A DNA stretch of 28,777 nucleotides from a virus. Lineage: Duplodnaviria > Caudoviricetes. Location of the stretch: positions 1 through 28,777 of IMG/VR virus record IMGVR_UViG_3300046714_000423; one strand, written 5' to 3'. The translations under genes and the position numbers were made by a program. Positions 637 to 22,629 of the stretch are shown here, piece by piece (position 1 is the stretch's first letter; each line of letters starts with the position of its first letter). The notes under the pieces are model-generated. The model worked only from the letters and a program-made list of their open reading frames with translations, made no database searches and was not told the DNA's origin.

Positions 637-3005
<2,369 letters not shown>

Positions 3006-3006
<1 letters not shown>

Positions 3007-3443
3007 CAGCCGCAACAGTTAGAAAAAAACCACGCCGCCGCCAAGGTGGAGGACGAGACGCTTGAGCCGGACGGACCCGTGGGGCCCGTGGGGCCAGTCG
3101 GACCCGAGGAGCCCGCCGCGCCCGTTGCCCCGGCCGCACCAGTCGGACCCGTGGGCCCAGTGGGACCGGTCGTTCCGTTTCCGGATGCGACCGTGGCCTC
3201 GAGCTGAAAATCTGCGAAGAGGCCGGAGCCCGAAACCGTGTCGGCGTTCAGAGTGAGAGCGCCCGTGGTCAGTGAGACCAGCGGACCCTCGACAAAAAGC
3301 GTGGGGCGACCAGAGACAGTCGCGCGGACCCGCGTGCCGGGCACAAGCGTGAAGTCGGTGATTCGCAGGCGCAGGATAAAAGTTTTTGCTCCCGTGCTGA
3401 GCGTGACCGCGGTCGGGCTTGAGTTGAGAAACTTCGACGCCAT
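3006..3443 (-). CDS. Short collagen-containing tail/fibre protein (145 aa)
   Basis: N-terminal beta domain (TLSTGAKTF...GSG), short GPT tract, ends WFFSNCCG. Translationally coupled at both ends. Confidence 0.75.
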
Positions 3444-4135: not shown

Positions 4136-4306
4136 TTAAGAGGTGCGGCGTTTGGGTTCGGCGTCAACGTCCGGTGTGATGTCTTCGAGTTCCCCGTCCT
4201 CGTCTCGCGCGGGCATGAACCGTTGCGAGCCGTTGACGAGCACCGTCATGTCTTCCGTGGTGAGCCCGAGGTCCTCGAGCGTGATGTCTTTGTGTGGGGT
4301 GGTCAT
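4136..4306 (-). CDS. Small acidic protein coupled to the giant protein (56 aa)
   Basis: ATGA overlap with the giant ORF stop. Sequence MTTPHKDITLEDLGLTTEDMTVLVNGSQRFMPARDEDGELEDITPDVDAEPKRRTS. Confidence 0.65.
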   Translation of the reverse strand: MTTPHKDITLEDLGLTTEDMTVLVNGSQRFMPARDEDGELEDITPDVDAEPKRRTS

Positions 4307-7300
4307 TTTTTCTCCTGAACGTCGCTCGCCTCGATGGTCTTGGCTTTCTTGGCGGCTTTCGGCTTTACGTCCTCGGGCGTGATAGTGAATTGGCCTTCGG
4401 GACTTTTGGTCGTCCGGTCCAACAGAGTGTTGTAGTCGGACTTCGCTTTCCCGGCGGCAGCGGTCCACCCCCTCTTTTCCCAGCGGTCCTTTTCGGCAAA
4501 CCAGATGATGGCCTGCAAGGCGTCGGCCTTGATGCCTAGCTTGTCCGCGGCGTTCTGAAAAACGTCCTGGCCGAAGTAAAACTCTGGGTCGGCGACGCCC
4601 GTTTCGTTGGACGGCTGAATTCGCCAGGGCTTTCCGGACCCCTCGTTCGCGAGGCGGTGCAGCGTTCGCATGGCCCACACGTCGATGGTTGCCTTGAAGG
4701 TTGTCCCCGCAAGGTTGCCCGTGAAGTTCGGCGTCTTCGGGCCCTCCACGCCCTCGAGCCAGGAGCGGTCCAGCACCTTCATCACGGCGCGCGAGTTCAT
4801 GCCGAACTTTTTGCCGTTGGCCTTGGTGGGAATAAGATTGTTCTTTTTCTGCCACCAGCTCATGAAGGATTTCTTGTCCGCTTTCGCACCCTTCTTGCCC
4901 GTCTCGGCCGTGAACTCCGCGAGGTCGCCGTCCGCGAATTTCTTCTGGCCTTCCCGATACTTGGCGAGCATCCCGTCGTAATCCCCACGCTTGAAACGGT
5001 TGTAGGCCTCGAGCGCGTCCTTGAAGTTCGGGCCCACGCCCTGCTGCGGCGAGGTTGCGCCCAACAGCTCGGCGAAAAACTTTGAGTCGTCTCCGAAAAA
5101 GTGGCCGACCTTCTCGCGGAAGCGGGAATACCAGAACTCACCCTCGGCGATTGCCGGGTCTTTCTTGGCCTCGTGATACTCGTGTTCCAGCTTGTCTGCG
5201 AGCGCCTGCTCGAATTCTTTCTTGCCCCCGGACTTCTCGGCGAGGTCCGACTTGAGAAGGTTGTAGGGCCGGGAAACGGGCAGCGGCTCGCCGTCCCACT
5301 CGGCCAGATAGTTCCCGTTCTTGTCCTTCCGGAACTCGAGAGGGTGCGCCTCGGGAAAGTTTTTGCTCTTCGCGATTTTGTTCTCGACGAAGGCATTGTA
5401 TTCCGGCGTGCCAGGAATTTTCTTCTGCGTGACGTGCTCGCCCGTGCGCGCCTGGGCGATGCGTTCCTCGGGAACTTCCCCGCCGCCCTTCTCAGGCGCG
5501 GCGCTGAAAGAATAGTCCGCCTTGTTTCCGAACTTCGCGTCTTTCACAAACACGCTGTTGCCGACGCTCACGGCCTGCGAACCGGACACCACGGGTTCCT
5601 CGGTGCCCTTCTCGTAAAAGTAGGAGTGCTTGGTCGGGTTGTAGCCCGCCTCGGTCCACTCGGGCCCGCTCGGAATCTCGCGGCTAGGGTTGTATTCGCC
5701 TTCGACCGTCGCGATGGGAAACTTGGCCGCGCCCGCCCGGATTTTTTCCGCGCCCTTTTCGTTCGAGAAAAAGGTCGGGTTGTCCACGGTCGCGATGCTG
5801 TCGTAGCCGATGCGTTTGCCGACGTTTCCGCCCTTGGCTTTTTCGTGGACCGTGATGACATACGTCCCGCTCCGCGTGTAAGCCGGGATGTCGATGCGAA
5901 GACCGACGGGCGTGCCGGGCTTCAAATCGCGCGCGGCTCCAACGAGCGGTTTCTTGTCCTCGCTGAGCGCCGTCGTGATTTCTTTGTCGGTCGGAACGCG
6001 GCTCGGGGAAAACCGCATGTCCGTGCTCGTCTTCCGGAACGTGCCCACGTTGCCCGTCGCCGATTTGATTTGCTCTGGCTTGAAGGCGATGTAGTGGACG
6101 GTGTCTGGCTGCAACTGCATGCCCTTGAACTTGTCGCTCACCGTCTCGTCGATGATGCCGTCGAAGCCCGCGGCCTCAAGTGCTTCGCGGACCATCTGCG
6201 AGCGAACCAGCTTGCCCGTTTCCGGGTCCTCCGCCATGAAGTGTTCGCTATCTCGAATGGTCTTGATTAACTGGCTCGCCGTGATGTGGTCGTAGTCAAC
6301 GGTGTTCCGGATTTCCTCGAGACCCGCGTAGATGTCCGAGTCATATTGGATGCCCTGTTCTTCGAGGCTCTTCAAAAACTTGTCCAGCGTGCCCGTGCCG
6401 CGAAAGTTTGTCGTGAGCCGGGTCTCCTCGACACCGCTGACCCTCATTCCGACGCGGAAAGGTTTCTTGATGGCGAGGTAGGCGGGAATCACCGCGCCCT
6501 CGTGCTGGCCCGCCACTTGTTTCTTGGCCTGCACCAGAGCTTCGTCCCGGGAAATGTCTTCGTGGTCCTGCTGGATGCGGTCGGCGGTCTCTTCGATTCG
6601 CTGCGTGAGGTCCGGGCCCTCTCCCGCGTAGTTCCGGCCCACGTCCTCGGCGCTGCTCGTGAAGTAGTAGCCCTTGCCAAAATCGTTGTCGAGGTTGCCG
6701 CGGTCCGGCTTGAACTCCGTGAACTCGTGCGTCGTGCCGTGATAAACGACGAGCGGGTCGCTCGGCTTGTAGGGGTCCACGACCTCGGACTTGCCGAACC
6801 ACTTCTTGAAGTAAGGCGACTCCGTGCCCTGCTCGACCCACGCCTTGCGGGCTTTTTCTTGCGAGGCTTTGCTCGGCTCCGCGCCTGCGAGGGCAGGAGA
6901 AAAGGAGTCCTGCACCTTCTGCTCGGGGTTGATGCCCGGGGCATACGTTTTCTCCGTGCTGACGTGATGCGCTCCCTCGGGGATGTTCGCCTTCGCCGTG
7001 GCCTCCTCGGGTGACGTGGCCTGCACCTTCTGCTTGATGACCGTCTTGCCTTCCTTGCGCGGTTTCCAGATGACGTCGTAAGGCCGGGTCTCGCCCTCGG
7101 AGTTGACCGGGGTGGCAGCCTCTTCTTTACGACGCACAGAAAAACGGTCTTCCGGCCGAATGCGGTTCACGACGTCGATGCCCGGGACGTAGGTGCTCGC
7201 GCCTTTCTTGATGTCCGCCGCAGTGAGCAGGGCATCCGGGACGGAGAGGGGCTCGCCGCCGCCTTCCAGTTTTTCAAACCGGCCACCGAAAATTTTATTG

Positions 7301-10300
7301 CGGATTGCGATGGGCTCCGGGGCCACGACCATGCCCTCAACGTGCTCGATGCCGTCCTTCTGGAGCTGCGCGAACATCTCTCGATAGAGGGCCTCGCCCA
7401 AACCTTTTCCGCGGAATTTCTTTTCCACGTTGGTCATTGCAACGTCGGCCACGTTTGGTCGGGTTTCGGAAGTGGTCGCGTTGAGATAGCCGACGGACTC
7501 GCCGTCCTTCTTGACCACGACGGTCCGGTCGCCCTTGTCCCCGATGAACTTGAAATCGAAGCCCTGCTTTTCCAGCTCCTGGCCCTTCGCGGTCGCGGGA
7601 GAAAAGCTCTGTCCCTCCGCCAGGAACGGAGGCTTCGCGCCCTCGAACTCCGGGCTCCGCTTGATGCCAACCTTCGCGCTCGCGATGCCCTGAGCGGCCT
7701 CCCATGCTTCGCGGAAAAACTGGCCCTTCATGATGCTCGCCATTGCGCCGTCCATGTCGCCGTCCGCCATCGCGGCCCGGCCTTCGTCGTTCGCTTTCTT
7801 GGCGTAGTCGGCGAGCGTGGCGAGGTCAGCCCTGTCGGTCAGCCCGAGACCAAGGCGATACGCCTCCTGCGTCAGGCCGCCCTTGAAATTCTGCGCGGTC
7901 TTCGTCCACTCCTCGGGAGGTTGGTCGAGGATTTTCTTCGCGTCGTCCACGGTCTTGACGGAGAAAAAGCCCGCGGCCTCGCCGGGTCCGAGTTTCTTTC
8001 CGCCGCGCAAATCTCGCTCGACTTCTTGCTGCGTCTTGCGCCGCTCGATTTCCGTGGGCGCGACACCGGCCTTGCGTTTTTCCTCGAGACGCCGGGCCAC
8101 CTCGGCCTTGACGTCGTTGACAGAAAAACCTGCGCGCGCGATGTCGGTCGAGCCTCCGCTTCCTGGCACATCCGGTCGTGGGGTGACGGACTCGATGTTT
8201 TTCAGGTTGACGTTCTCGGTGACCTCGATGAGGTTCCCGACGGGCGCACCGGCGGCGCGCAGTTCGTTTCGGAGCGGATTAACTTCCGCGATGCTGCGGA
8301 TTCCCGCCACGCCTTCGATGGGTTTGAAGGTCGCGCGCTGCACGTCGGCTGCGGTGAATCCTGCGGGCGTCGCGGGTTTGCGGCCTTGGGCCTCGGCGAG
8401 CAGTTGGCCCTTCACGTTGCCCGGGATTTTGCCTTTCGTCTGGCGCGGCGTCTCCGGGATGTTCAGACCCTGCACGAGGTTCAGAAAATCCGTTTTCTCC
8501 GGCGTCAACGTGGCCGCGGGACCGCGCGGGTCCTCGGGCGGCAGGCTCACGCCAATGTCGGTCGCGGGTCGGACCAGCCTTTCTCCGTCGCCGCGAAAAC
8601 CGCGGTCCTGGTTGCCCCAGTAATCCTTGAGGTCTTGCACGACCTCATGCCACCCGGCCTCGGTGAGTTTCCCGGCCGCATCCACTTCGTAGGGGAGGGC
8701 GACTTTCTTGTCTGCCGCCATGTCGGCGGCGTTCTTCACGTTCGCGAGCACCTTGTCGAGGCTGCGCGCGGTGAGCTGTAATCCGGACTTGCCGGTCTCC
8801 TGCCAACGGGTGCCGAAAAGCACCTTCTGATGTTGCTCGCGGATGTCGTCGGGCACACCGCCCATTGCCTCGGCGATGTAAGCCTCTTCTTGCTCGGCCC
8901 GGCGGGTTCCGCGCGCGACCGGCTTTTCTGGGCTGGGCCCGCCTTCGCGGACGACGCCCTTGTGGACGATTTCGACCCCGTGACCGTTCGCCATCGAGTC
9001 GTTGATGGTCTGGACCGCCGGACGCTGTTCGGGCGCTGCTTTGGCGAGCGCCGTGTCGGCGTTGGTGACCTGGGACCGCTCGGCGGCGTAGTCGAGCTGT
9101 TCTTTCGGGGTGACCCGGATGTTTGGGGTGAGATTTTCGGCCGGGGCAGCGGGCGCAGGGCCCGGGGGCGGCGTTGCGGGCTTAGGGGCAGGCGCTGCTG
9201 GCGGCGGTTCTGAGGGTGACGGAGGCGCAGCGGCCTTCGGGCTCGTCCTGGGGGCTCCTGGCGCGTTTTCCGGGCCCCGCGCAATCGGCTTCGGCGGGCT
9301 GAGCGTGCCTTCCTTGACGCGCTGGGCCATGTCGCCCAGAAAATCGCGCGCTACCTTCAGCTCCGAGTGCCCAGGTCGAACGCCAAGCGCGGAGACGCCG
9401 GGTCCTGCTGGGAGTGCTTTTCCCGCAAGCGGATAGCCCATTTTATCGAGCGCGCGGCTGGCGAACTCGGTTGCGCGTTTGACGACGCTGGGGCGGACGC
9501 CGCTGAGGTCGGTGGCGTTGAGGACGCGCCCAAAGACTTCTGCGGCAGCCTCTTCGAGAATCTGTTTCTTGTCATATTCGACGGTCCATTGGCTCTTTGG
9601 TTTTCCGCCGTTCAACGCGGCGTTGTAAGTGTCTGCAATCCAGGTCTGTTCCTCGGGGCTCCAGGTCTTGGAGATGTGCGACTCAAGGGCTTGCGCGGAC
9701 GCCGGGTCGAGGCTCTTGAAAGCATGGTAAAGCTCGTGGCCCAGACCGTTGGTCTCGCCGTTAAGTAGCACCTGCACAACGGGTTGGCGCGTGCCGTCCG
9801 CGTTGATGCGCTCGCCGCGCGTGGTGAAAAAACCTTCAGCGGCGGCTGCTCCCGCGACATTCGGGACGTGGTTCTGGAACGTCTTGTTGTCCAGGGCGTA
9901 GATTTCCACCCCGGCGTCCCGGAAAAACTCCCGCGCCCAGTTCACCACGGACTGCTGGCCGGGCGGCAGGCTCTGGACCTGCTCATTGTGGGCAGCGTCA
10001 AGTTTTTGGTCGGTGCCGTAGTAGGGCGAGTCTTTGATGGGCCCGCGGTCCACGGCTTCGAAAACTTTCGACGCGAGCTTTTCCTGCGCTGCCTGTCCAG
10101 CCGCGTGTGTGCCCAAACCGAGCGCCGCGCCGCCCGCGCGCAGTGCGCCAGCGCCGCCAATCATGCCGAGCAGGCCCTCGCGCTCCTCCGGCGTCGAGCC
10201 GATGAACAGCGGGACGGAAAGAGCCGCGCCTTCAGCCGCCCCCTTGGCACCCTCGAGTCCGATTTTCCCGATGGTCGGGGCCGCGCCTTGGACGGCTTCG

Positions 10301-11541
10301 CCCACCGCGCCGATTCCCTTGCCCGTGTATTTGAGCAGGGTCGGGGCTGCGAGCCCGATGGCCGCGACGGGGTTGTGATAGATGAGCGCGGCCTTGCCGA
10401 GACCGCCCAGATTGCTGGCCGCTTTCCCGGCGACTTCGCCGAGTTTTTCTGTCCCGGCACCGATTTTCTCGATGCCCTTTCCGGCGAGTTCGACAGTGCC
10501 ACCGGCCGCGCGTTCGAGGACCGCGTTGGTCACCTTCGCGAAGGCCTCCGCTGCCGCGGGGGAGATGGCCTTGCCGAGCAAAAACTTTCCGGACTTGCTG
10601 ACGACGCCGATTACGCCGCCGACAGGCACCAGGAACATCGGGTCCTCGATGACCGACAGCTTTTTGATGGCTTCGGGGTCGAGCGTGACGCCGGAGGCCT
10701 TGAGGCTCTCCTGGTCGGTGCCGAGTGCGTGCGCGAGTTCACCGTTGCCCGCGGCTGCGGCGAGTTCTTTTCGCTTGAAGTCTGCGTCGTAGGCCAGACG
10801 CTCACGGATATTTTCCGGGCGCGGCAAAAGTTTCGAGGTGAGCGTCGTCACCCAGTGTTGCTGCGCGGAATCGAAGGCATCGACGACTTCCGCGGCGCGC
10901 GCGGCGGTCTCCTTGAGGTCCCCGGCGGAGAGCGCACCAGCGGCTTTTCCGGCGGTAGTGAAAACTTGGCCCACGCCCTTTCCGAGTTCGCCGATGAACT
11001 CCCCGGTGCCCTTGACGATTTTTCCAACCGTCTTCGCGGTCTCAATCGGATGAAATGGCGCGGTGGCGACGGCTTTCGCGAATTGGCCCGCAGTCATGCG
11101 CTCCTTCTCGCGCTGCTCGTAGGCGTCTTCGACCAGCTTCAGGGCCTGCGGGTCGGCAAGAAGCGCGTCTGTGTTCTTCGCGTAAAACTCGACCGGGTTG
11201 AACTCCGACTTGTCTTTCACCAAGTCTTCGACCTTCGAGGACTTCAGCTTGGCGATGTCGTAGCCGCGCGATTCACCTGCGGGAGCCGCCCCGGCAAAGG
11301 GGTCCGCGGTTTTGACCTCAGTCGCTCCTGCGTATGGGTCCTCCGGGGCCTTCTCGGGAATCATCGGCTGCGGCGGGGCCTCTCCACGTCCCGCGGGGGT
11401 CGCCGCAAAAGGCGGGAGGATGTTCGTCGTCAGCGCCTGGGCGGCGTAGGGGTTCACCGCTTCGAGCGCGCCCGCATACGGGTCAGCCGCCGATGCTGCG
11501 GTCTCGCCCGCCACCGGCAGGAGTGTTTTGGTCTCGGCCAT
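4303..11541 (-). CDS. Giant polyvalent / DNA-ejection (internal virion) protein, 2412 aa, with zincin, GNAT, ADP-ribosyltransferase and HhH-glycosylase-like domains
   Basis: Third and largest of three ejection-type genes. Motifs: GHELYH plus downstream EEAAAE (zincin); VEKKFRGKGLGEALY (GNAT motif A); VYHGT...GYYFTS...GFDGII...YIAFKPEQIKSATGN (ART of polyvalent proteins); WY...ATSPQ...GPKTPNF..NL.G...TIDVWAMR (HhH-GPD-like). Confidence 0.85.
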   Translation of the reverse strand: MAETKTLLPVAGETAASAADPYAGALEAVNPYAAQALTTNILPPFAATPAGRGEAPPQPMIPEKAPEDPYAGATEVKTADPFAGAAPAGESRGYDIAKLKSSKVEDLVKDKSEFNPVEFYAKNTDALLADPQALKLVEDAYEQREKERMTAGQFAKAVATAPFHPIETAKTVGKIVKGTGEFIGELGKGVGQVFTTAGKAAGALSAGDLKETAARAAEVVDAFDSAQQHWVTTLTSKLLPRPENIRERLAYDADFKRKELAAAAGNGELAHALGTDQESLKASGVTLDPEAIKKLSVIEDPMFLVPVGGVIGVVSKSGKFLLGKAISPAAAEAFAKVTNAVLERAAGGTVELAGKGIEKIGAGTEKLGEVAGKAASNLGGLGKAALIYHNPVAAIGLAAPTLLKYTGKGIGAVGEAVQGAAPTIGKIGLEGAKGAAEGAALSVPLFIGSTPEEREGLLGMIGGAGALRAGGAALGLGTHAAGQAAQEKLASKVFEAVDRGPIKDSPYYGTDQKLDAAHNEQVQSLPPGQQSVVNWAREFFRDAGVEIYALDNKTFQNHVPNVAGAAAAEGFFTTRGERINADGTRQPVVQVLLNGETNGLGHELYHAFKSLDPASAQALESHISKTWSPEEQTWIADTYNAALNGGKPKSQWTVEYDKKQILEEAAAEVFGRVLNATDLSGVRPSVVKRATEFASRALDKMGYPLAGKALPAGPGVSALGVRPGHSELKVARDFLGDMAQRVKEGTLSPPKPIARGPENAPGAPRTSPKAAAPPSPSEPPPAAPAPKPATPPPGPAPAAPAENLTPNIRVTPKEQLDYAAERSQVTNADTALAKAAPEQRPAVQTINDSMANGHGVEIVHKGVVREGGPSPEKPVARGTRRAEQEEAYIAEAMGGVPDDIREQHQKVLFGTRWQETGKSGLQLTARSLDKVLANVKNAADMAADKKVALPYEVDAAGKLTEAGWHEVVQDLKDYWGNQDRGFRGDGERLVRPATDIGVSLPPEDPRGPAATLTPEKTDFLNLVQGLNIPETPRQTKGKIPGNVKGQLLAEAQGRKPATPAGFTAADVQRATFKPIEGVAGIRSIAEVNPLRNELRAAGAPVGNLIEVTENVNLKNIESVTPRPDVPGSGGSTDIARAGFSVNDVKAEVARRLEEKRKAGVAPTEIERRKTQQEVERDLRGGKKLGPGEAAGFFSVKTVDDAKKILDQPPEEWTKTAQNFKGGLTQEAYRLGLGLTDRADLATLADYAKKANDEGRAAMADGDMDGAMASIMKGQFFREAWEAAQGIASAKVGIKRSPEFEGAKPPFLAEGQSFSPATAKGQELEKQGFDFKFIGDKGDRTVVVKKDGESVGYLNATTSETRPNVADVAMTNVEKKFRGKGLGEALYREMFAQLQKDGIEHVEGMVVAPEPIAIRNKIFGGRFEKLEGGGEPLSVPDALLTAADIKKGASTYVPGIDVVNRIRPEDRFSVRRKEEAATPVNSEGETRPYDVIWKPRKEGKTVIKQKVQATSPEEATAKANIPEGAHHVSTEKTYAPGINPEQKVQDSFSPALAGAEPSKASQEKARKAWVEQGTESPYFKKWFGKSEVVDPYKPSDPLVVYHGTTHEFTEFKPDRGNLDNDFGKGYYFTSSAEDVGRNYAGEGPDLTQRIEETADRIQQDHEDISRDEALVQAKKQVAGQHEGAVIPAYLAIKKPFRVGMRVSGVEETRLTTNFRGTGTLDKFLKSLEEQGIQYDSDIYAGLEEIRNTVDYDHITASQLIKTIRDSEHFMAEDPETGKLVRSQMVREALEAAGFDGIIDETVSDKFKGMQLQPDTVHYIAFKPEQIKSATGNVGTFRKTSTDMRFSPSRVPTDKEITTALSEDKKPLVGAARDLKPGTPVGLRIDIPAYTRSGTYVITVHEKAKGGNVGKRIGYDSIATVDNPTFFSNEKGAEKIRAGAAKFPIATVEGEYNPSREIPSGPEWTEAGYNPTKHSYFYEKGTEEPVVSGSQAVSVGNSVFVKDAKFGNKADYSFSAAPEKGGGEVPEERIAQARTGEHVTQKKIPGTPEYNAFVENKIAKSKNFPEAHPLEFRKDKNGNYLAEWDGEPLPVSRPYNLLKSDLAEKSGGKKEFEQALADKLEHEYHEAKKDPAIAEGEFWYSRFREKVGHFFGDDSKFFAELLGATSPQQGVGPNFKDALEAYNRFKRGDYDGMLAKYREGQKKFADGDLAEFTAETGKKGAKADKKSFMSWWQKKNNLIPTKANGKKFGMNSRAVMKVLDRSWLEGVEGPKTPNFTGNLAGTTFKATIDVWAMRTLHRLANEGSGKPWRIQPSNETGVADPEFYFGQDVFQNAADKLGIKADALQAIIWFAEKDRWEKRGWTAAAGKAKSDYNTLLDRTTKSPEGQFTITPEDVKPKAAKKAKTIEASDVQEKK

Positions 11542-12950
11542 TATGGTCGAAAGTTGGGGTTGACCAGGAGGCGCGGCGGGTTCTCCGTCGTCTTGAAGAA
11601 CTGCACGTTGCTAGGGACCTCCGCGAGGCTAGAAAAGGCCGGGGCGGAGTTGGATTGTTCGACAGTCGGGCGCGGCGCTTGCGCGGGCGTCGCGGTGGGC
11701 ACGCCCTGTGCGGCGGCGTGGCCCTCGAGGAGCGCGCGGTGTTCGAGCGGGACCACCGTTCCGGGCGGGAGGCCCGCGGCGCGTTCGCGTTCGGCGTATT
11801 GCTTGATGCGAGGAGCGAGGTTCTGCACCTGCCCCTGATAAACCGGGGCGGCGGCTTCGCGCATTTCCTTGCGCTGTTCGGGCGTCAAAATCTGGCCGGT
11901 GAGCGCTTGGTTGTAAAAGTTGCGGACCTTGTCCGGGATGCCGCGGGCGTTTTTCGCCGAGGCGTATTCGCCTTCGCGGACTGTCGAGCCGGGGTCGAGG
12001 ATTTTCATCCACGAGAAAATTGCGGCTTGGTCGCGCAACGGCGTCGGCGGGATGGCCGGGTTCGGGTCGGTCGCGGAGATGAGTTTGTTGTAGGACGCGT
12101 CCACCTTGTCGAAGTCGTGCAGCGCCGGGAGGGCGTTGTATTCCTTCGCGAGTTTCTCGGCGTCTGCTGCGCGTTGTTCGGGCTCTTTCGCCGCCGCCTG
12201 GGCCTTCGCTTTGCCGAACTCCGCCAGCGTCTGAAACTGAATCGCCTGGAGTTGCTGGTGCGTGAGCGCTTGGTCCGTGCGGAGCCGCAGTTCGTGGTCG
12301 TATTCGGGCGTCCCGGGCTTGAGTTCGCGCGTCTGGTTTTTCGCGGTCTTGACGGCGACCTGATATTCCTCGCCCTTGTCTCCCTTGAGGCGGAGATTCG
12401 TTTCGTAGGCCGCGCGCTGTGCGGGCGTGCCTTCAAAAGCGTTGACCTGTCGGTTGACCCAGGAGTCAAACTCCTCGGGCTTCGCGCCAGTGAGCACTTC
12501 GAGCTTCGGTGTGGCGGTCCCGAAAACCTGAATGGCCGCGAGTTGGTTCTGGCGATGCTGGTAGGCCTCGCGCGCGGGAAGTGCCACGGACGGGTCCGGG
12601 TCGTTCAACTGGTTCAGCAAAGTCTGCTGCGTGGTTCCGCCCGTCGTCTGCGCCTTCGTGAGTTCGCGTTGAAGCGGGCGCACCTCGTTGATGTCGATGT
12701 TCGCCTGTTCCGCGGCGGATTTCGCGGCGACGTTCTGCGCGGCCTCCGCTTCGTATCCGGACGTGCCGACGGCTTGGCGGCGTTTGATGTCTTCCGCGGT
12801 GATGACGCCCGTTTTGTAGGCGTTCATGAAATCCTGGAACTCCGGCAGGTGGCCGAGCGAAGACACGTTGACGGGCGGCTGCGTGTCAACGGTGCCCGCG
12901 ATTCCTGCGGACTGGATTTGGGCTGGGACTAGGTCTGCGATGCCGGGCAT
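11541..12950 (-). CDS. Probable DNA-ejection / internal virion protein (469 aa)
   Basis: Helical Ala/Gln-rich protein with DQAAIFSWMKILDPGSTVREGEYA, a motif type I recognise from podophage injection proteins. Lies between the small and giant ejection genes. Confidence 0.7.
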   Translation of the reverse strand: MPGIADLVPAQIQSAGIAGTVDTQPPVNVSSLGHLPEFQDFMNAYKTGVITAEDIKRRQAVGTSGYEAEAAQNVAAKSAAEQANIDINEVRPLQRELTKAQTTGGTTQQTLLNQLNDPDPSVALPAREAYQHRQNQLAAIQVFGTATPKLEVLTGAKPEEFDSWVNRQVNAFEGTPAQRAAYETNLRLKGDKGEEYQVAVKTAKNQTRELKPGTPEYDHELRLRTDQALTHQQLQAIQFQTLAEFGKAKAQAAAKEPEQRAADAEKLAKEYNALPALHDFDKVDASYNKLISATDPNPAIPPTPLRDQAAIFSWMKILDPGSTVREGEYASAKNARGIPDKVRNFYNQALTGQILTPEQRKEMREAAAPVYQGQVQNLAPRIKQYAERERAAGLPPGTVVPLEHRALLEGHAAAQGVPTATPAQAPRPTVEQSNSAPAFSSLAEVPSNVQFFKTTENPPRLLVNPNFRP

Positions 12951-12956
12951 AAAAGG

Positions 12957-13952
12957 TTACGAGTAGGCTCCACGGAGGTTTGCAATCGCTTGGCCGGATG
13001 TCACGCCGCCAGAGGCTGCGCTGGGCCCGCCGAGGCTGCCGCCGTATGCGCCGAGAGCCGACGTGGCGAACTGGCCTGCCGCTCCGATGTAGGCTGCGTT
13101 TGCTTCGCCTTGCGCGAGGGCTTGCTGCGCGGAGACTGCGCCGCGTTGGCCACGAATCTTCATGAGCGCGTTGCCCCGGTTGATTTGCAGGTTGGCCGCT
13201 TCTGCTCCGGTGAGTCCGGCCTGCGGGAGGTTCTGGTCGCCGATGCCGAACGTGGACGCCGCGATGCCGCGCTGCGTCGCTTCGCTCTGGCTGATGGTCG
13301 GGAAAATGGATGACAGGATTTTCGCGCGAGACTCCTGGAGACCGGCGGCGGTGCCCGCGAGGCTCTGGGCTTCCTGCTGGCGCTGGGCTTCGAGCGCGAC
13401 GCCCGCGCTGCCGAGCGCTTGGTAGAGCCGCCCGCCGACGGTGCCCTGCGTGGGCTTGAGTCCGGCTTGTGCGCCCTGGCTCACGCCTGCGCGGACCAGC
13501 TCCGCCTGAAATTCGGGCGGAAGAGTAGCGCCTTGCGCCAGCTTTTCCTGCGCCTTGCCTATGATTTGGTCCTTGAGTTTCTCGAGCCCTTCGCTGGGCT
13601 TGATGTTCTCCTCGAAAAGTTGCTTGGCAACCTGGACAGACTCGCGGCTCGCTTCGGGTTGCTGCGCCTGCGCGAGTAGCTGTTGCTTGCCGAGCTGACG
13701 CATCTGCGCCAACTCCGGGTCGATTTCTTCCTGTAGCCGGATGCGTTCCTTCGCGCGGTTGCGCTCCGCATCGACGGAGGCTTGCTGCACCTTGTCGTAG
13801 CCGAGTTCCTCGCTGAGGATTTTCTTCTGGCCCTTGAGGGCAGTCTTCTGCGCGCCCGCGGCCTTGTCGGCGGCTTTCTTTTTCGCGTAGGCTGACCCGG
13901 CGGCGGCAGCCGCGGCTGCCCCGGCCACGACTAATGCAGTTACCACACCCAT
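12957..13952 (-). CDS. Probable DNA-transfer / pilot ejection protein (331 aa)
   Basis: Hydrophobic Ala/Gly N-terminus (MGVVTALVVAGAAAAAAAGSAY) followed by KKAA, a Gln-rich coiled region and a Gly-rich tail. Architecture and position match P22 gp7 / T7 gp14-like proteins. Confidence 0.7.
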   Translation of the reverse strand: MGVVTALVVAGAAAAAAAGSAYAKKKAADKAAGAQKTALKGQKKILSEELGYDKVQQASVDAERNRAKERIRLQEEIDPELAQMRQLGKQQLLAQAQQPEASRESVQVAKQLFEENIKPSEGLEKLKDQIIGKAQEKLAQGATLPPEFQAELVRAGVSQGAQAGLKPTQGTVGGRLYQALGSAGVALEAQRQQEAQSLAGTAAGLQESRAKILSSIFPTISQSEATQRGIAASTFGIGDQNLPQAGLTGAEAANLQINRGNALMKIRGQRGAVSAQQALAQGEANAAYIGAAGQFATSALGAYGGSLGGPSAASGGVTSGQAIANLRGAYS

Positions 13953-14471
13953 CTATTTATCCTCCAACACTTTACGTTGCTTAGTCAAGGTTCGGTGGCA
14001 ATTCGAGCACACCACTTGACATTTTGCGATTTCGTCTATGCAGGCCGACAGGCCATATGACGTGCCATCGCACCCGATGTTAAATCGCTTTTCCCTACCC
14101 GGAAGGTGGTCCCAGTCTAAACACTCAGCGGGGAACATCCCACCGCAGATGTAGCAGCCCCGCTCGACCTTCAGAAGGTCAATCTTCCTCCGGGTATCCG
14201 CCCTCTTCTCGGCCTCTCGTATCCCCACCTCGGGGTTCTCGGCCACCCGTCGATAGCCCTCTTCCCGCTCCCGCCATTCGGGGTCAACCGCACGTCGAAG
14301 TCTGCGCCCCGTGTTCTCTTTCTCCGCCTGCGCCCCCATCCTCCACTTCCGTCGATTGGCATTGATGCAATCTCCGCAGCAAGCCGACGGGATTTTGCTG
14401 CCGTGAGAGTTCTTCATTGGGAACTCACCCGATTCTTTCTCCGCCCCACATTTTGTGCAGATTTTTGTCAT
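13953..14471 (-). CDS. Free-standing HNH homing endonuclease (172 aa)
   Basis: MTKICTKCG...CCGDC zinc finger and GCYICG...LDWDH...KCQVVCSNCHR HNH core. Lower GC than neighbours. ATG at 14471 preferred over the track start. Confidence 0.85.
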   Translation of the reverse strand: MTKICTKCGAEKESGEFPMKNSHGSKIPSACCGDCINANRRKWRMGAQAEKENTGRRLRRAVDPEWREREEGYRRVAENPEVGIREAEKRADTRRKIDLLKVERGCYICGGMFPAECLDWDHLPGREKRFNIGCDGTSYGLSACIDEIAKCQVVCSNCHRTLTKQRKVLEDK

Positions 14472-14478
14472 AACGCCA

Positions 14479-14507
14479 AGCGTAAATGAATCGGCGAGGG
14501 CCGTCAA
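14479..14507 (-). promoter_or_regulatory. Sigma70-like promoter for the HNH gene
   Basis: TTGACG (14507-14502), 17-nt spacer, TACGCT (14484-14479), then 7 nt to the ATG. Confidence 0.55.
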
Positions 14508-14962
14508 CTTTCCTTCCTGAACGTCTGCTCTAGCAGCGAAAAACCTCGCGACTCATAGAGCTTCTGCAACCCCGCGCCCATGTGGGCGAAGTGGACCATC
14601 AAAATCTCGCTGCACCCGCGTGCTTCGGCTTGCTCTTCGAAGTGGTCGAGGAGCATCAGGCCCGCGCCGGTTTTCCGGAACTCGGGCAGCACATACCAGA
14701 ACATCTCCGATGCCGTGAGCACTCCGGAAAAGGGGTCGTTCAAAAACGAGGCACCGAGGGCCGCGATTATTTTCTGGTCGCGCGTCACGGGGCCGGAAGA
14801 CCACACGACGTAAATCTCGCCATAGCCGGAATCGAGGAGGCTGCCCCACGCATTGGCAAACGAGCACTCACTGAAGGCCGCGCGGCCCACCTCTTCGGTG
14901 AACGCGTGCCCAATCGGGAACAGGAACGGGAGCTGGTCTGATAGCAGTGGTGTGACTTTCAT
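14504..14962 (-). CDS. GNAT-family acetyltransferase (152 aa)
   Basis: EMFWYVLPEFRKTGAGLMLL (motif A) and LQKLYESRGF (motif B). Sits just before the ejection genes, like T7 gp13 / P22 gp14-type genes. Confidence 0.85.
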   Translation of the reverse strand: MKVTPLLSDQLPFLFPIGHAFTEEVGRAAFSECSFANAWGSLLDSGYGEIYVVWSSGPVTRDQKIIAALGASFLNDPFSGVLTASEMFWYVLPEFRKTGAGLMLLDHFEEQAEARGCSEILMVHFAHMGAGLQKLYESRGFSLLEQTFRKES

Positions 14963-15564
14963 GATTGCACGTCAAAGAAACCTACGTTGATGAGCCGGGC
15001 CGTTTCCTTGCTCTTGCCGAACGCCTCGAACGGCCAGCGGCTGTGCCACTGTGAGCAGGGGAAACAAATGCACTTGTTGAACTTCATCTCCGCGAAATGA
15101 ACCTGCTCCCACGCGTCGGCGTTCTGCATGTCTTCGCGGAGCATCTCGTAGATTCGCTTCTTGGACTTCCCCGTCTTGAGAACGTCTCCGTCCGTGGGGA
15201 ACCCGAGCCACTGATATTTTCGGTGAATCCAAAACGCGGTGCCGCCCTTGCAGTCCTGCGGGCGGCTCAGGTAAAGGATGTAGGCGAACGGAGAAAAAGA
15301 CTCGTCCGTGTGAATCGCGTTGTTCGGCAGTTCGTCCGCAAAGTTCATGCGCGCGAGGCACAGGTCGATGGTCACCGGCTTTTTCAGCCCGGCCTCGAGG
15401 TGCGGCCGAATCTCGCTCGGCGGGCGGACGTTGACGTGCTTGTAAATCTCTCCGTCGCTGTGCCGGATGTTGTAGAACTCCTGGGCAGCCAAAAAGTCCC
15501 GATACGCCTCGGCGTTCGGCAGAAAATCTTCGAAGGTTTGAACTCGAAGTTCTTTCCAGCTCAT
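14959..15564 (-). CDS. 2OG-Fe(II) oxygenase superfamily protein, DUF6445-like (201 aa)
   Basis: HTD iron-binding motif, ILYL, GGTAF, FNKCICF, distal H (WHSR) and terminal R (ARLINVGFF). ATGA overlaps at both ends. Confidence 0.8.
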   Translation of the reverse strand: MSWKELRVQTFEDFLPNAEAYRDFLAAQEFYNIRHSDGEIYKHVNVRPPSEIRPHLEAGLKKPVTIDLCLARMNFADELPNNAIHTDESFSPFAYILYLSRPQDCKGGTAFWIHRKYQWLGFPTDGDVLKTGKSKKRIYEMLREDMQNADAWEQVHFAEMKFNKCICFPCSQWHSRWPFEAFGKSKETARLINVGFFDVQS

Positions 15565-16613
15565 ACTTTCACCAGTGACCAAAACCAAACGGTCGGTTGG
15601 ATATTCGGGTGTCCCTCGGCCACGCCCGTGTAGTCGCCCCAATCGGTGAGAGAAAGCTGGCGGCTCGTGATGAGCTGCGTCCCGGCGGGCCCGTCGCCTG
15701 CCGTGCCGTCGTGTGTCCCGTCGCTTCCGCCGTCGCCGTTCACCTCGAAATAATTCGGCGGGATGATGGGCGGGAGGTTGATGGTGTCCGCGTTTTTCCC
15801 GCGGTGTAGCTGGACCGTGTTGCCGGAGTGCAGCGCGGTCGCGTGTCCCGTCAAGTGCGTGTGCTGCTCGATTTGCGCGGACGTCAGGACCACCGTCTCG
15901 GAGCCGTCTTGTTCGCCGGAGTCGCGGGGCGTGATGCCGCTGTCGGTCGCGAACACGTCGGTGCCGTCTTGCGTCGCGACACCTAAAACTTTTCCACGGA
16001 CGGTCTGGTCATCCTTACCGAGATACTGCCATCCGGGATTGAAAGTGAGTGCGTCAGACAGGAGCGACTGCGCCACGAACTTGATGTCGCCCGGGCTTCC
16101 GCTAACGGTTCGCCAGGAGCCGCGTTCCCAGTGAATCAGTGCGTTGATGCTCGTGTCCCAGAATTCTTCCAGGTCCACGGGGTTCGTCGGACGCTGAGCC
16201 GTCGTGCCGCTCGGGGGCGGGTTCACCAGCGCGCGCCACTCGGTGCCGTCGAAAGCATACCAGCCGATGGCCCGGGTTTCGAACGTGCGAAGCCAGAGCG
16301 TGGGGTCGCCGGGCTGCGGCGGGATGGCCGGAGTGTTGGGGCCGATGACGAAAAGGTTGAGGGACGCGCTGATGTCGAGCGGAACGTATTTCCCCTGGTT
16401 GATGTCGAAGACCCACCACTGCGTGCCACCCTTGAGCCAGGGGCCGACGTTCGAGCTGGGCTCGGAGTCGCCGACGACGAAAAATTCGGTGCCCTGCGGC
16501 GACTGGATTTCCATGCGCTCGACAAGTGCCTCGAAGAACTCTTGCGGGTTGCCCTTGAAGTCGGGCGGGAGTTGCGCGGCGACGATGACGAGGTTGGTCT
16601 TAAACAGTGACAT
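15561..16613 (-). CDS. Tail fibre / tail-collar-like structural protein (350 aa)
   Basis: PGDIKF...GW, GSETVVLTSAQIEQHTH and terminal HPNIQPTVWFWSLVK match the collar/short-fibre pattern. Also SGTTAQRP and Trp-rich strands. Confidence 0.7.
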   Translation of the reverse strand: MSLFKTNLVIVAAQLPPDFKGNPQEFFEALVERMEIQSPQGTEFFVVGDSEPSSNVGPWLKGGTQWWVFDINQGKYVPLDISASLNLFVIGPNTPAIPPQPGDPTLWLRTFETRAIGWYAFDGTEWRALVNPPPSGTTAQRPTNPVDLEEFWDTSINALIHWERGSWRTVSGSPGDIKFVAQSLLSDALTFNPGWQYLGKDDQTVRGKVLGVATQDGTDVFATDSGITPRDSGEQDGSETVVLTSAQIEQHTHLTGHATALHSGNTVQLHRGKNADTINLPPIIPPNYFEVNGDGGSDGTHDGTAGDGPAGTQLITSRQLSLTDWGDYTGVAEGHPNIQPTVWFWSLVKV

Positions 16614-17010: not shown

Positions 17011-18994
17011 TGGCGGCGGCTCCGAGGCTCACGACCAACGGCAGGTCCGCCTCGATTTTGTGGGACGCCTTCCGGGTGGCCACGCAGAGCGCGACCTTGT
17101 CGGCGTCCGCCTGCGAGATAATGCTGCGGCCCTCGCCGACGGCGATTTCAGTGAAGCCCTGGTTTTCAACCGCGGTTGAAATGCTCGAAGTGAACTCGAG
17201 AACGTCGTGCGACAGGTCTTCTTGCGCCTGGGCGGTGTTGTCGGCCTCAGAAGCCGCCCCGTCAAAGCGGACCACGTTTTCCTCGGTCTCGTTCTCGCAG
17301 TTGTCGGTCCGGAGGAGGTTGTCGCGGGACATCATCGGCTCATAGACCATTTTCACGGCGTCCACGGCGCACGGACCGCTGCCCGCGACGAGAACCTGGA
17401 AGGCTTCGTCGAAGAATTCGCCCCACGGGGATTCGATGCCGCAGGAACTTTCGGTCTGGTTCTCGATGAGGTCCTTCGCGTCTTCGGTGCGGATGATTCG
17501 CGACTGTTTCTTGAACCCGAAAATCGTCGTGTTCATGTCGATGACCATGTCAGGGCGGAAGCAGCCCTCGGTGGCCTTGAGGCGCTGAGAAAAGATTCGC
17601 TTGTATTTCCCGCGGCGCGCGCCCGCCCAGAAAACTCCGACGTCCACGTCGCCCATCATTTCGGACAGGTAGATGTCCGCGTAGCGGAAGTTTTTTCGAC
17701 GCAGCACGTCGCTCGGGGGCCCGAAGTAGCCGCGGGTCTCGAACCACCAGGAAATCGGGCAGGACTCGTCGCGGCGGTCGGGGTAAAAGGCCTCCCACAG
17801 CCGGTTGACGCCGTCGTAATCGGGCGAGATGAAGAACATTCGCTCGCGACCGTGGACCTCGATGTTCAGCCACTCCACCGGGCGCGTGCCGGTCCAAAAG
17901 CTGTTCCACGTCGGGGGCAGGTCCTCCTGATAGTTCTGACGGACCGCGTTGTCCATGACCCAGGTGTGCCGGTTGAAAATGTCGCCGTAAGGAACGCTCA
18001 GGAGGATGTAGTTTTCGAACGTGCCCGCCGCGACGCCCGAGAGGTCCTCAGACAGCCGGGACTTGCTCTCCATCATTTCCGAGTCGCGATAAGGCAGCTT
18101 GCTCGTCAGCTTCGCGTGTTCCGCGGAGTCGAGGGAGCAGAGGCCGAAAGACGAGAACCACCAGAGCATCCCCTGCTGGTCGATGACGGACCGCTGGCTT
18201 TTGCAGCCGATGTTCGGGAAAATCTCCTGCTGCATGTTCGGCGTGATGGGCCACTGCGTGCGGTCCCGGATGCCCGCCTGGATGAGCGTCGTTTCGTTGT
18301 CCGTGAAGACAATGAGCTGCGCGAACTCCACCGTCGGGTTGCGCGCGAGTGCGGTAATCTCGGAGGGCAGCACGAAAGAGCGGACGGTCGCGAGATAAAC
18401 ATCTTCGATGAACGAGATGGGGTTGTTGATGTCGGACGCGAAAAGTTCCGCGCCGCGAGCGACCCAGAGCCGGTCGCCGACCCAACGCATGGGCCCGCCC
18501 ATCGGGATTGCGCCCGTGCCACGCGATTGCGTGACGCGCGTGCCGTCGTAGTAGGCGGGAACCGTGAACGCGCCGTCCTGAATGATGAGCAGGTTCCGCG
18601 GGTTGATGAGCGTAAGGCTGCCGTCGGCGTTCGCTTCGATGGACTGCTCCACGAGTGCGAAGAAGGCCTGCCGCGCGGAGGGCGAGAACGTGACGTCGGT
18701 GAGCAGCCGGGAGTCGTGGAAAGGCGGGTCTGAGACGTAGAGCCGTCCGCTCACCATGAAGATGAGCTGTTCCGACCCGACCTTGGGTTTGAATTTCGAG
18801 AAGCCCTGGAGACGACCGTCGGCCAGAGCCGTGAGGCACCGGTAGCCGGGCCGACACTGGACGATGCCCCCGCGGTTGACGATATTCTCGCCGCGCGCGT
18901 ATTTTCCGGGCGGCAGCTTGATAGGGTGGCTGTTGGAATCCATGCCCACCTCAAACGATACGTCCCCATCCTCTAGGAAATTTGCGGAAGCCAT
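16997..18994 (-). CDS. Tail nozzle / tubular protein B-like (packaged-DNA stabilisation gp10-like), 665 aa
   Basis: Beta-propeller-like pattern (DRLWVA, LFASD, IGCKSQRSV, MLWWFS). Size and position after the adaptor gene fit. Confidence 0.7.
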   Translation of the reverse strand: MASANFLEDGDVSFEVGMDSNSHPIKLPPGKYARGENIVNRGGIVQCRPGYRCLTALADGRLQGFSKFKPKVGSEQLIFMVSGRLYVSDPPFHDSRLLTDVTFSPSARQAFFALVEQSIEANADGSLTLINPRNLLIIQDGAFTVPAYYDGTRVTQSRGTGAIPMGGPMRWVGDRLWVARGAELFASDINNPISFIEDVYLATVRSFVLPSEITALARNPTVEFAQLIVFTDNETTLIQAGIRDRTQWPITPNMQQEIFPNIGCKSQRSVIDQQGMLWWFSSFGLCSLDSAEHAKLTSKLPYRDSEMMESKSRLSEDLSGVAAGTFENYILLSVPYGDIFNRHTWVMDNAVRQNYQEDLPPTWNSFWTGTRPVEWLNIEVHGRERMFFISPDYDGVNRLWEAFYPDRRDESCPISWWFETRGYFGPPSDVLRRKNFRYADIYLSEMMGDVDVGVFWAGARRGKYKRIFSQRLKATEGCFRPDMVIDMNTTIFGFKKQSRIIRTEDAKDLIENQTESSCGIESPWGEFFDEAFQVLVAGSGPCAVDAVKMVYEPMMSRDNLLRTDNCENETEENVVRFDGAASEADNTAQAQEDLSHDVLEFTSSISTAVENQGFTEIAVGEGRSIISQADADKVALCVATRKASHKIEADLPLVVSLGAAANEQP

Positions 18995-19527
18995 TTGTCT
19001 CCCTTCTCCAGGTTCTCTCTTGCAAAGAGGGGTTGATAGTTGTCCCAGCGGAAGCAGATTTTCTGCTGCTCCGGGTCGGAGAGGTCAAAACTCGCGCAGG
19101 GACGAACGTGGTCGAGGTGCCACACAGGACCGTGGTTCTCCCACGTCATTCCGGGTCGGAATTGACCGTGGACGTAAATCTGGAACTCGTCTAGATTCAT
19201 ATCTAGGAGTCGGAGCGCAGAGGAACCCTTCCATCCGTTCTTGAGTGTGTCATACAGGCGGTTTCGGAGGGTCCTCGCCAGCTTATAGCTGGGGTCCGAA
19301 TCCCGGCGGGCCTTGTCATACGCCAAATTATAAGCCTTCACCCGGGCCCAATTCCTAACCACATACCCCCGCTTGGTTGACTTTACGGTCTCCGGATTTG
19401 CCTTGGCGTGCCGTAAACTAATTTCGTTCCGGACCAGTTTTCGGCAGGCGGCGCAATACTTTGGAACCTGCCCAGAAGGACAGGGTCGGAGGAAGGAGCA
19501 ACTGCACTTTTTGCATAAACAGTTCAT
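18973..19527 (-). CDS. Free-standing HNH endonuclease (184 aa)
   Basis: CKKC...CAAC N-terminus and MTWENHG..WHLDHVRPCASFDL...NYQPLFARENLEK. Low GC. ATG at 19527. Confidence 0.85.
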   Translation of the reverse strand: MNCLCKKCSCSFLRPCPSGQVPKYCAACRKLVRNEISLRHAKANPETVKSTKRGYVVRNWARVKAYNLAYDKARRDSDPSYKLARTLRNRLYDTLKNGWKGSSALRLLDMNLDEFQIYVHGQFRPGMTWENHGPVWHLDHVRPCASFDLSDPEQQKICFRWDNYQPLFARENLEKGDKWLPQIS

Positions 19528-19549
19528 CTTGAATTGTGCCACACAACGC

Positions 19550-20509
19550 TCACTCAATCCAATCAAAGCCCTCGTTCTTCACACTGTTGCGGTCTTGAAC
19601 TTGGATTGGTGTCAACGCGGGTCCCTCGAGGCTCGACTCCTTCTCCGTCAGGATTCGCACCGCGTGCGCTTCGTAGGTCGTCGCATTGGAGATGTCTGTG
19701 TCGTCGTAAAACCGCACGGCGCGCATCGCGAGAACAAGCGCAAGGCGACTGTTCATGTTGATGCGGTCGTATTGGCTGAAAAGCCGGTAGCTGCTCTTCC
19801 GGTAGCAGATGCGGACCCAGCACGCGTTCCGCCAGAGTTTGATTCGTCGATACATCGGTTTCGTCTCGTTGGGTTCGAAGATTCCGAGGAGCGTGCCGGT
19901 CGTGCTGTTGACGGTGGCCGAGTTGTCGAAGCTGGAAAGGCGCACGTCGCCGACGGTGTTCGCCTTGACGATTGCACTGATACGGCTGACGGTGGGCGCG
20001 TTTGCGTCTGGTAAAGCAAACCCAAAAACGGTGGGCACTAGGTAGCCGTCGGACCACACGCCGCCGACTTGCGTCCGGAGCGGCCGGTTCTGGTCGTCAT
20101 GGCCGAACACGCGCAGCTCTTTTCCCTCGTCCTCCTGGCTGTCCAGGTAGGCCACGAGTTTTCCGGGGCACGGCAGGTCCCGGTAGGTCGGGAACCGTCC
20201 GATGTCGGTCCAGGAGCGCCAGACGGTGACGAAATCTCCGGGGCCGTTCAGGTGAAAAGTATGCAGCGGGTTCCGGCCGATAGTCGGGTGGCCGTCCATG
20301 TTCAACGCGAGGATGGTCTCGACCTCGCGCGGGAGCGTGATGCACTGTGCGCCGTCCACGCAGATGTCCACGTAGCCGGTCAGCGCGTCGATTTCGCCTT
20401 TGCTGGCGAGAAGTTCGACGGCGTCACCGATTTTCTCGTAGAGCAACGTGTCGTCGCAGTGACGGAAAATCTTCTTGGCTTCGGACCAGATTTCTTTGAC
20501 GAGGAACAT
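19550..20509 (-). CDS. Probable head-tail adaptor / tail tubular protein A-like (319 aa)
   Basis: N-terminal helices, ITLPREVETIL strand, C-terminal helices (ALVLAMRA...AVRILTEK). Located upstream of the nozzle-like gene. Confidence 0.6.
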   Translation of the reverse strand: MFLVKEIWSEAKKIFRHCDDTLLYEKIGDAVELLASKGEIDALTGYVDICVDGAQCITLPREVETILALNMDGHPTIGRNPLHTFHLNGPGDFVTVWRSWTDIGRFPTYRDLPCPGKLVAYLDSQEDEGKELRVFGHDDQNRPLRTQVGGVWSDGYLVPTVFGFALPDANAPTVSRISAIVKANTVGDVRLSSFDNSATVNSTTGTLLGIFEPNETKPMYRRIKLWRNACWVRICYRKSSYRLFSQYDRINMNSRLALVLAMRAVRFYDDTDISNATTYEAHAVRILTEKESSLEGPALTPIQVQDRNSVKNEGFDWIE

Positions 20510-22384: not shown

Positions 22385-22629
22385 GTCGGGCAGTCCGGGT
22401 TTTCTTTCAAGTTGTCGTGGATGAAGCTCGCGTCTGCCTCATTTAGAATCGCGAACCCAGCCTCGTCCTGCAAAACCTCTTCACACGCCGTGCTAAAGGT
22501 TCGGCGCGGCAGTGTGCGCGGCACTTTGTCGAGTCGTTTGATGCCCGCCGCTTTCGGGCGGCAGCAATCTCCCAACTCGTGGTTCGGGTCGCGGATGACC
22601 GGGTTGTTGCCCCTATGACAGTTTGACAT
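22381..22629 (-). CDS. Small Cys-containing virion-associated protein (82 aa)
   Basis: Overlaps both neighbours. C-terminal [12 protein letters not shown] resembles the L-x-E-x-G-x-x-I-x-x-E motifs often found just upstream of fibre genes. Confidence 0.6.

Follow-up and report, generated by a model that had tools for sequence, protein, structure and literature searches.

Polyvalent proteins, a class defined by Iyer et al. in 2017 (PMC5512222), have the zincin as a hub domain and were proposed to process themselves; the main text of that paper cites P1 DdrB as processed and N4 vRNAP, ArdC and TraC1 as unprocessed. The phage-type members are large late-operon proteins of variable architecture that carry a zincin metallopeptidase (MPTase) together with GNAT and ART-PolyVal domains, and autoproteolytic release has been proposed for them, but the available text of that paper names neither a junction motif nor a cleavage sequence. 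Here, we describe a protein of this kind (P0001), 2412 amino acids (aa) long and encoded on the minus strand at 4303..11541 of a 28,777-base virus record (IMGVR_UViG_3300046714_000423, about 40% complete), the whole of which is called the window below. It joins unrelated domains in one polypeptide, carries an HExxH motif with a downstream Glu and is encoded in late virion gene position, as in the polyvalent class. Our analysis shows that its C-terminal half consists of swappable cassettes that meet at a lineage-specific tripeptide tag and suggests that the tag is probably cut by the protein's own zincin, a reading that we favor on balance. The polyvalent class and the idea of autoprocessing are already published; what is new is a junction code whose tag differs from lineage to lineage. 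The literature accessible without subscription yielded no account of it, and the available text of PMC12002296 and PMC9503650 added nothing on junctions. Beyond what the available text of PMC5512222 reports, the window family displays the tag itself, its switching between lineages, a change of tag in exchanged cassettes and a conserved core depleted of the tag.

Other described systems resemble this protein in part. MARTX toxins, too, are polyproteins that are delivered and whose modular effectors are set free by a protease within them; according to the accounts available, however, they are bacterial toxins directed against eukaryotes and use a cysteine protease whose cutting has been shown, whereas cutting of the window protein is predicted, and homology is not expected. 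Pro-Pro endopeptidases (PPEPs), whose recognition extends over the six residues P3-P3' flanking the bond and involves contact with a proline at P3', and anthrax lethal factor share with the window protein the predicted zincin fold, the HExxH motif, a conserved Tyr and a short-motif specificity that includes the P3' proline (available text of PMC12828418). Unlike the window protein, with which they share 10-15% identity and a fold similarity of Z 5-6, PPEPs cut a Pro-Pro bond in separate secreted substrates, while the P1' residue predicted here is Phe in cis; the junctions have no Pro-Pro core, and we rejected the identification as a PPEP. N4 vRNAP, phi14:2 gp65-67 and phi24B gp47 are likewise very large proteins packaged in the virion, each with a zincin or metallopeptidase domain to which no firm role is assigned, and peptidoglycan digestion was proposed for the phi24B and phi14:2 peptidases (10.64898/2026.04.10.717836; 10.1101/2020.03.07.982082). 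The window protein differs in having no RNA polymerase, and the available text of these reports and of PMC13434306 describes no cassette tag.

Homologs were gathered with aa 480-1140 as query (75 homologous proteins) and through locus scans that yielded 54 viral, 32 metagenome and 2 genome loci, giving a merged set of 130 C-terminal tails, 105 of them nonredundant. With few exceptions, T-D-x-x-R-[AG]-G or some form of it closes the conserved core, and a lineage-specific tripeptide comes directly after; at the first junction of the 105 tails this tripeptide is FLP in 61, FS[VAL] in 16, FMP in 9, FKP in 4, FLT in 4 and another in 11; the tags found across the family are FLP, FMP, FQP, FKP, FSP, FS[VA] and [FY]L[TP]. 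These tags mark the borders of cassettes. Borders were called without reference to any motif, from the ends of pairwise local alignments, and sites with fewer than 3 informative alignments were left out. In FS-clade tails, 60 of the 72 FS[VPA] sites were border-like compared to 59 of 757 other Phe, and in FLP-clade tails 207 of 232 FLP sites compared to 254 of 2524; FS[VPA] in FLP hosts was border-like at only 6 of 33 sites. Conversely, the motif-free borders carried the host's tag in 50/58 cases in the FS clade, 93/119 in FLP hosts with an HExxH zincin, 98/109 in FLP hosts with an HDxxH zincin and 51/99 in hosts with other tags, where random windows gave 12.8, 22.1, 22.9 and 20.3, respectively. 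The 8 misses in the FS clade include a conservation step within the last cassette, near aa 2052. The tag patterns were picked once the data were known, and every count here and below is made on sequences that are related, so that the counts are not independent trials.

The signal recurred in further proteins. The family, a group of large proteins of podophage-like viruses, comprises at least 459 clusters at 50% identity, as collected with a profile of the conserved domain B described below; the best 150 of the 459 were used, 120 of them new identifiers, and 102 remained (some overlapping the locus set) after 18 with a short tail or no junction call were left out. In these 102 proteins, the first-junction tripeptide recurred in the protein's own tail 277 times, with 15.1 expected, and did so two or more times in 64 of them. 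Pooled by class, FLP was observed 285 times (15.7 expected), FMP 95 times (1.6) and FQP 75 times (4.6); in the FS class there were 29 FSV (2.5 expected) and 22 FSP (2.2), with a single FLP (2.6). The FMP and FQP classes are looser and use FSP or FLP too. Junctions have mostly S, K or Q at position -1 and F at position 0, are conserved over just 2-3 residues in frame, and lie in flanks that are 13% hydrophobic compared to 26.5% for the tails as a whole.

An earlier note on this DNA, made from the letters alone, had proposed that FS[VPA] is the cleavage or junction code of an ejected polyprotein that releases host-takeover enzymes. FS occurs at aa 1139, 1193, 1313, 1467, 1547, 1844, 1925 and 2012 of the open reading frame (ORF) and nowhere in aa 1-1138, as had been noticed. 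The seven FS[VPA] coordinates agree (the one given as 7960-7968 spans FFS, with FS proper at 7960-7965), and so do the unit lengths of 54, 120, 154, 80, 297, 168 and 401 aa. The cassettes, all on the minus strand, are as follows. Cassette 1 (7966..8127, opening with FSV at 8119-8127) is predicted to form two helices and belongs to our family 7 (18 members), and cassette 2 (7606..7965, FSV at 7957-7965) belongs to family 2 (68 members), which has no family name. Cassette 3 (7144..7605, FSP at 7597-7605) is a GNAT acetyltransferase (Pfam match at aa 1329-1402); cassette 4 (6904..7143, FSV at 7135-7143) is unnamed, with partial homologs in 6 other proteins besides the near-identical P0014; and cassette 5 (6013..6903, FSP at 6895-6903) is an ART-PolyVal ADP-ribosyltransferase (aa 1596-1835, E 1e-18). 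Cassette 6 (5509..6012, FSP at 6004-6012) is Phage_L5_gp82-like, its match at aa 1902-1991 lying below the Pfam cut-off, and holds the one other FS (FSN, 5761-5769), which is indeed internal, inside that match and with 0 alignment ends against 12 run-throughs. Cassette 7 (4303..5508, FSA at 5500-5508) matches DUF7178 at aa 2115-2351 and belongs to family 1, the last cassette in 62 of the 69 proteins that carry it.

Six of the seven window sites passed the boundary test, with alignment ends to run-throughs of 4/0, 42/17, 61/39, 25/13, 9/0 and 12/6, and the FSA at aa 2012 was borderline (10/11). None of the FS[VPA] sites falls within the GNAT, ART-PolyVal, Phage_L5_gp82 or DUF7178 matches. The HhH-like label given to the last unit was not confirmed, as Pfam returned only DUF7178, PHROG only phrog_3842, and phmmer no PDB match. 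On the window sequence alone the FS excess is weak: the 8 occurrences in the C-terminal half compared to 3.2 expected make it the 4th-ranked dipeptide (p=0.017, uncorrected), which is not significant over 400 dipeptides, and the N-terminal part has 0 compared to 1.2 expected. It is the homologs that make the junction signal strong. FS[VPA] turns out to be the form that a wider F-x-P code, present across the family and changing from lineage to lineage, takes in this one lineage. Zincin cleavage, ejection and a host-takeover role of the cassettes are what we, like the earlier note, would infer.

The junction-code part of that proposal was upheld: the motif is where cassettes come, go and change their order, and it is read at the protein level. 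Splitting the proteins at their tags gave 545 pieces and 26 families with at least 2 members. The 16 FS-clade proteins have 15 different architectures, and in the closest relative of the window protein (P0003, 82% over the core) most cassettes between tags are lost; cassettes of relatives include a methyltransferase, PBECR5 and LPD23. The tag is set by the host protein and not by the cassette, as cassettes of families 1-9 begin with FS when they sit in an FS host and with FLP when they sit in an FLP host. In 8 of these 9 families, the most similar FS and FLP cassettes are 57-78% identical, more than the 46% reached by the most similar cores, and in 6 of the 9 family trees the FS members fall into 2-5 separate groups. 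Slower cassette evolution could account for part of the high cassette identity, but exchange across tag classes followed by re-tagging would be the simpler reading. Residues at position -1 and before track the upstream family and those at +2/+3 and after track the downstream family; each flank follows its own side, and therefore crossovers fall at the tag. Concerted switches are nested among FLP neighbors: P0042 carries FKP five times, P0041 FQP four times, P0086 FQP eight times, P0092 FSP seven times and P0088 FMP four times, with all or nearly all junctions of each such lineage changed together.

Some further features of the cassette regions were observed. Units of 8-22 aa between two tags (P0004, P0012, P0015, P0030, P0033, P0039, P0067 and others) are probably relics of deleted cassettes that kept both tags. 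The commonest cassette families, 2, 3, 5 and 6 (45-68 members each), received no Pfam name in the scans; family 6 (about 255 aa), which does not occur in the window, has conserved HDYFGH-like residues. P0072, P0068 and P0074 carry a second HExxH within the cassette region, which in P0072 is a DUF6782/M78-like peptidase adjoining LPD23.

Both Phe codons, all 6 Ser codons (AGY and TCN) and all 6 Leu codons are used at junctions, and 116 FLP junctions comprise 37 different 9-mers; the code is therefore read in the protein. The conserved core avoids the tag of the FS clade. FS occurs 5 times in the N-terminal cores of 14 FS-clade proteins, the one clade on which this depletion rests, compared to 20.1 expected, and 161 times in 56 FLP-clade proteins, compared to 92.3 expected. 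At a conserved F-x-P column (aa 114) all 14 FS-clade proteins have FNP, and the six commonest forms in the FLP clade are FSP, FRP, FNP, FHP, FDP and FTP. FLP is absent from all 56 FLP-clade cores. The FS depletion is such as a scanning protease would cause.

The zincin (MPTase) domain spans aa ~500-745 (9307..10044) and was delimited by conservation and predicted fold. As the earlier note had seen, its HELYH motif (aa 602, 9724..9738) lies upstream of the cassettes and has Glu residues downstream of it. The zincin residues are H602-E603-x-x-H606, E664 as predicted third ligand, E668 and the near-invariant Y639, and the metal ligands are kept in all full-length homologs. The motif of 174 full-length proteins is HExxH in 145, HDxxH in 27 and, as read by eye, HExxxH in 2 (P0075 and P0159), the last form being mentioned in the main text of PMC5512222 as well. 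Residues specific to the FS clade include E569, N598, Y605 and K609. An AlphaFold2 model of aa 488-1204 built from 60 sequences (mean predicted local distance difference test, pLDDT, 80; predicted template modeling score, pTM, 0.52) is divided into two domains, with junctions 1 and 2 both lying in coil of low confidence (pLDDT <50). The predicted zincin fold resembles lethal factor, Certhrax and PPEP-2/-3 (Z 5.3-6.2, root-mean-square deviation (rmsd) 3.8-4.9 A, 146-173 residues aligned), in line with the conservation of H602, E603, H606, E664, E668 and Y639. For the zincin, the Atlas returned clusters without a name and a single cluster with LPD23 (18% of members), and Foldseek searches against PDB and BFVD gave no match at E <=0.001 and only weak matches to polyvalent proteins.

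Between the zincin and the first junction lie a Pro/Ala-rich linker (aa ~750-805, 9127..9294), predicted to be disordered (pLDDT mostly <50), and domain B (aa 805-1138, 8128..9129), the most conserved part of the protein, which ends at the first junction. In the two-domain model, domain B is predicted to be a WYL/Sm-like barrel with large insertions, resembling PafBC (Z 9.2, rmsd 2.7, 88 residues aligned), CapW (Z 8.1), BrxR (7.8) and DriD (7.6). WYL proteins bind single-stranded DNA. The likeness is to the barrel core of these WYL domains (Z 7-9, 80-90 residues aligned), from which domain B differs by about 250 inserted residues and by having no sequence match; it contains invariant N-Q-x-x-G-[YF]-x-G-x-G and E-x-N-P-L-R motifs. 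Sequence searches of the conserved core against PDB, PHROGs and NCBIfam found nothing meaningful, with no match for domain B, and the Atlas had no usable match for it either. Domain B was considered as a reader of the tag and set aside, as the independent switchers share no convergent residue in it; none was found in the zincin either.

The following model can be proposed. The protein would be packaged in the virion and then ejected, as suggested by its gene position, and once it is packaged or ejected the zincin would cut in cis before the tag Phe, freeing GNAT, ART and the other cassettes as separate proteins. The contact of PPEPs with a P3' proline suggests by analogy a cut before Phe, with F-x-P as P1'-P3'; the bond would have F at P1', S, L, M, Q or K at P2' and P, V or A at P3', and drift in the S2'/S3' pockets of the zincin would drag all junctions to a new tag. 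Several observations weigh against this zincin reading. Cleavage at the tags is so far a prediction for the family, and the MPTase-bearing N4 vRNAP, ArdC and TraC1 are packaged or transferred uncut according to the main text of PMC5512222. The fold matches of the zincin are middling (Z 5-6). The ART cassettes (family 8) are the exception to the high cassette identities, at 38% for the best FS-FLP pair. All four tag groups show a depletion of FLP in the core, and only that of FS is therefore clade-specific. At FS junctions TCT is used in 21 of 52 cases compared to a 14% background, and junction codons are slightly more alike within a genome (1.25 of 3 compared to 1.12 +/- 0.05, reached by 0 of 200 controls), which indicates that DNA-level homogenization also acts; we read this as shuffling via microhomology on top of protein-level selection, an account that does not explain it in detail. 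Parsimony on 118 proteins (56 without a dominant tag were left out) needed 18 tag changes for the zincin tree compared to 15 for that of domain B, with about 52 for shuffles; because kin share tags, neither count shows co-evolution, and the comparison does not discriminate between the two domains. Finally, the 27 zincins with HDxxH in place of HExxH keep the tags, with junctions as strict as or stricter than those of the HExxH proteins (98/109 compared to 93/119, Fisher p=0.019). Substitution of Glu by Asp usually cripples zincins, and for this reason the clade counts against cleavage by the zincin. It has co-fixed G570A (27/27) and a new His569 (25/27) with all metal ligands kept, which looks like remodeling of an active site that may still work. 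These proteins, with an HDAGH motif, form the P0046-P0068 group (loci L015-L024, L036, L039, L071, L074, L076, L085 and L090); the new His lies on a neighboring strand, and HE versions are nested among the members. No paper on HDxxH zincins was found in the literature searched.

We place the zincin reading, in which we have modest confidence, ahead of three others. The strict tags of the HDxxH clade would suit an uncut binding handle, which could dock on the cleft of a pseudo-protease zincin, on domain B or on the portal or ejection channel and so pack, order or thread the cassettes. Domain B, in which the protein is most conserved, is a predicted barrel that directly precedes the first tag; the FS and [FY]L[TP] clades, both with a relaxed proline, group as sisters in the domain-B tree and not in the zincin tree, and N4 vRNAP is, in the main text cited above, an MPTase-bearing protein packaged uncut. 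However, of the 15 domain-B columns characteristic of the FS clade, nearly all still have FLP-type residues in five independent switchers; HExxH is kept in 145 of 174 zincins; and a protease accounts more easily than a passive handle for the depletion of FS in the FS-clade core. We find a handle unlikely. Another protease, of the host or encoded unrecognized elsewhere in the phage, would equally account for the HDxxH clade and for the zincin tree fitting no better, and among the ORFs of the complete relatives there are many that match no family. Against this, repeated switches between close phage lineages fit a co-evolving phage enzyme better than a conserved host enzyme. A scan against PHROGs recognized no head-maturation protease among 70 ORFs of the two complete relatives (57 of 80 in G004 and 13 of 70 in G001), picked by eye from the 150 listed ORFs of at least 100 aa, and in the neighboring ejection-position genes tags are scattered without pattern and rarely those of their own lineage. 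We regard such a protease as less likely still than the handle.

A scar at the DNA level, in which each genome homogenizes its recombination microhomologies and the peptide itself is functionless, would explain why crossovers map to the tag and why junction codons are mildly homogenized, with TTT TCT at 4 of the 7 window junctions; both complete relatives also encode a serine-recombinase-like protein (phrog_95 and phrog_125; L096:8572-9336 and L094:12135-12872), upstream of the packaging genes. The use of all synonymous codons, the 37 distinct 9-mers among 116 junctions and conservation confined to 2-3 in-frame residues speak against it, and it leaves the FS depletion in the core unexplained; we consider it quite improbable. 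That an ordinary dipeptide was noticed post hoc would agree with the nonsignificant excess in the single sequence after correction for multiple testing, but this is refuted by the homolog tests (FLP and FMP at 285 and 95 occurrences) and can practically be dismissed.

All long genes of the window are on the minus strand in podophage late-operon order: a 426-aa gene that we take, by position, as the major capsid gene (no family match), tail-fiber-like genes, genes of 319 and 665 aa, a GNAT gene, two genes (331 and 469 aa) and, last, the 2412-aa gene. PHROG matches around the latter are to tail-fiber, minor-coat and internal-virion proteins, and in G004 there is a weak terminase match upstream. 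In P22/T7-like phages the last late-operon position holds the largest ejection protein; by this position, the window protein would be packaged and ejected. The N-terminal region (aa 1-490, 10072..11541), Ala/Gly-rich with weakly hydrophobic stretches, may have an ejection or membrane role. The two upstream genes (469 and 331 aa, 11541..13952, minus strand; phrog_13634, unknown function) occupy the position of podophage ejection genes and may have that role; the G004 gene at the matching position has a match to phrog_8003, 'virion structural protein'. The complete relatives measure 70-74 kb. A tblastn search of the annotated phage collection with domain B gave no match and no cultured member, and two contigs of metagenome-assembled genomes from the genome scan, of unrelated taxa, were not taken as hosts. 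Elsewhere in the window, small ORFs within the late operon (13953-14507, 18973-19566 and 28298-28657) look by eye like HNH or other homing endonucleases (two of the three were scanned, with no Pfam match); a 2OG-Fe(II) oxygenase-like/DUF6445 gene (14959-15642, phrog_1644) adjoins the GNAT gene in the virion module; and several collagen-like and glycine-rich fiber genes lie at 637-3015, with Gly-x-y repeats, and 21164-23776. A contig of run X1 covers the polyprotein gene without differences and is possibly the source of the same DNA; one of run X4, lacking 6900-7201 at 80% likeness, was not used as evidence.

Processing of polyvalent proteins by their zincin has been proposed since 2017 without a site, and the window family gives exact predicted cut sites. 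It also offers a set of proteases naturally paired with codes of different tags, as well as a Glu-to-Asp variant that arose in nature, which together turn the standing proposal into a simple, precise test. With the tag, at least 26 cassette families, mostly unnamed, can be delimited to the residue; their members are singly expressible candidate anti-defense or takeover enzymes. More tentatively, the proteins of this large family may be a programmable effector magazine, in which a cis-acting zincin reads a three-residue code that drifts between lineages, all junctions are re-coded together, imported cassettes have to be re-tagged before they work, and one clade has an active Asp-type zincin (HDxxH with a new His). 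If cleavage takes place as proposed, these zincins would add a new group to the proteases that recognize short motifs. Under the N-end rule, a first residue Phe, Tyr or Leu is of the N-degron type, and a cut before Phe, Tyr or Leu would leave such a residue on the released enzymes, giving them a built-in timer.

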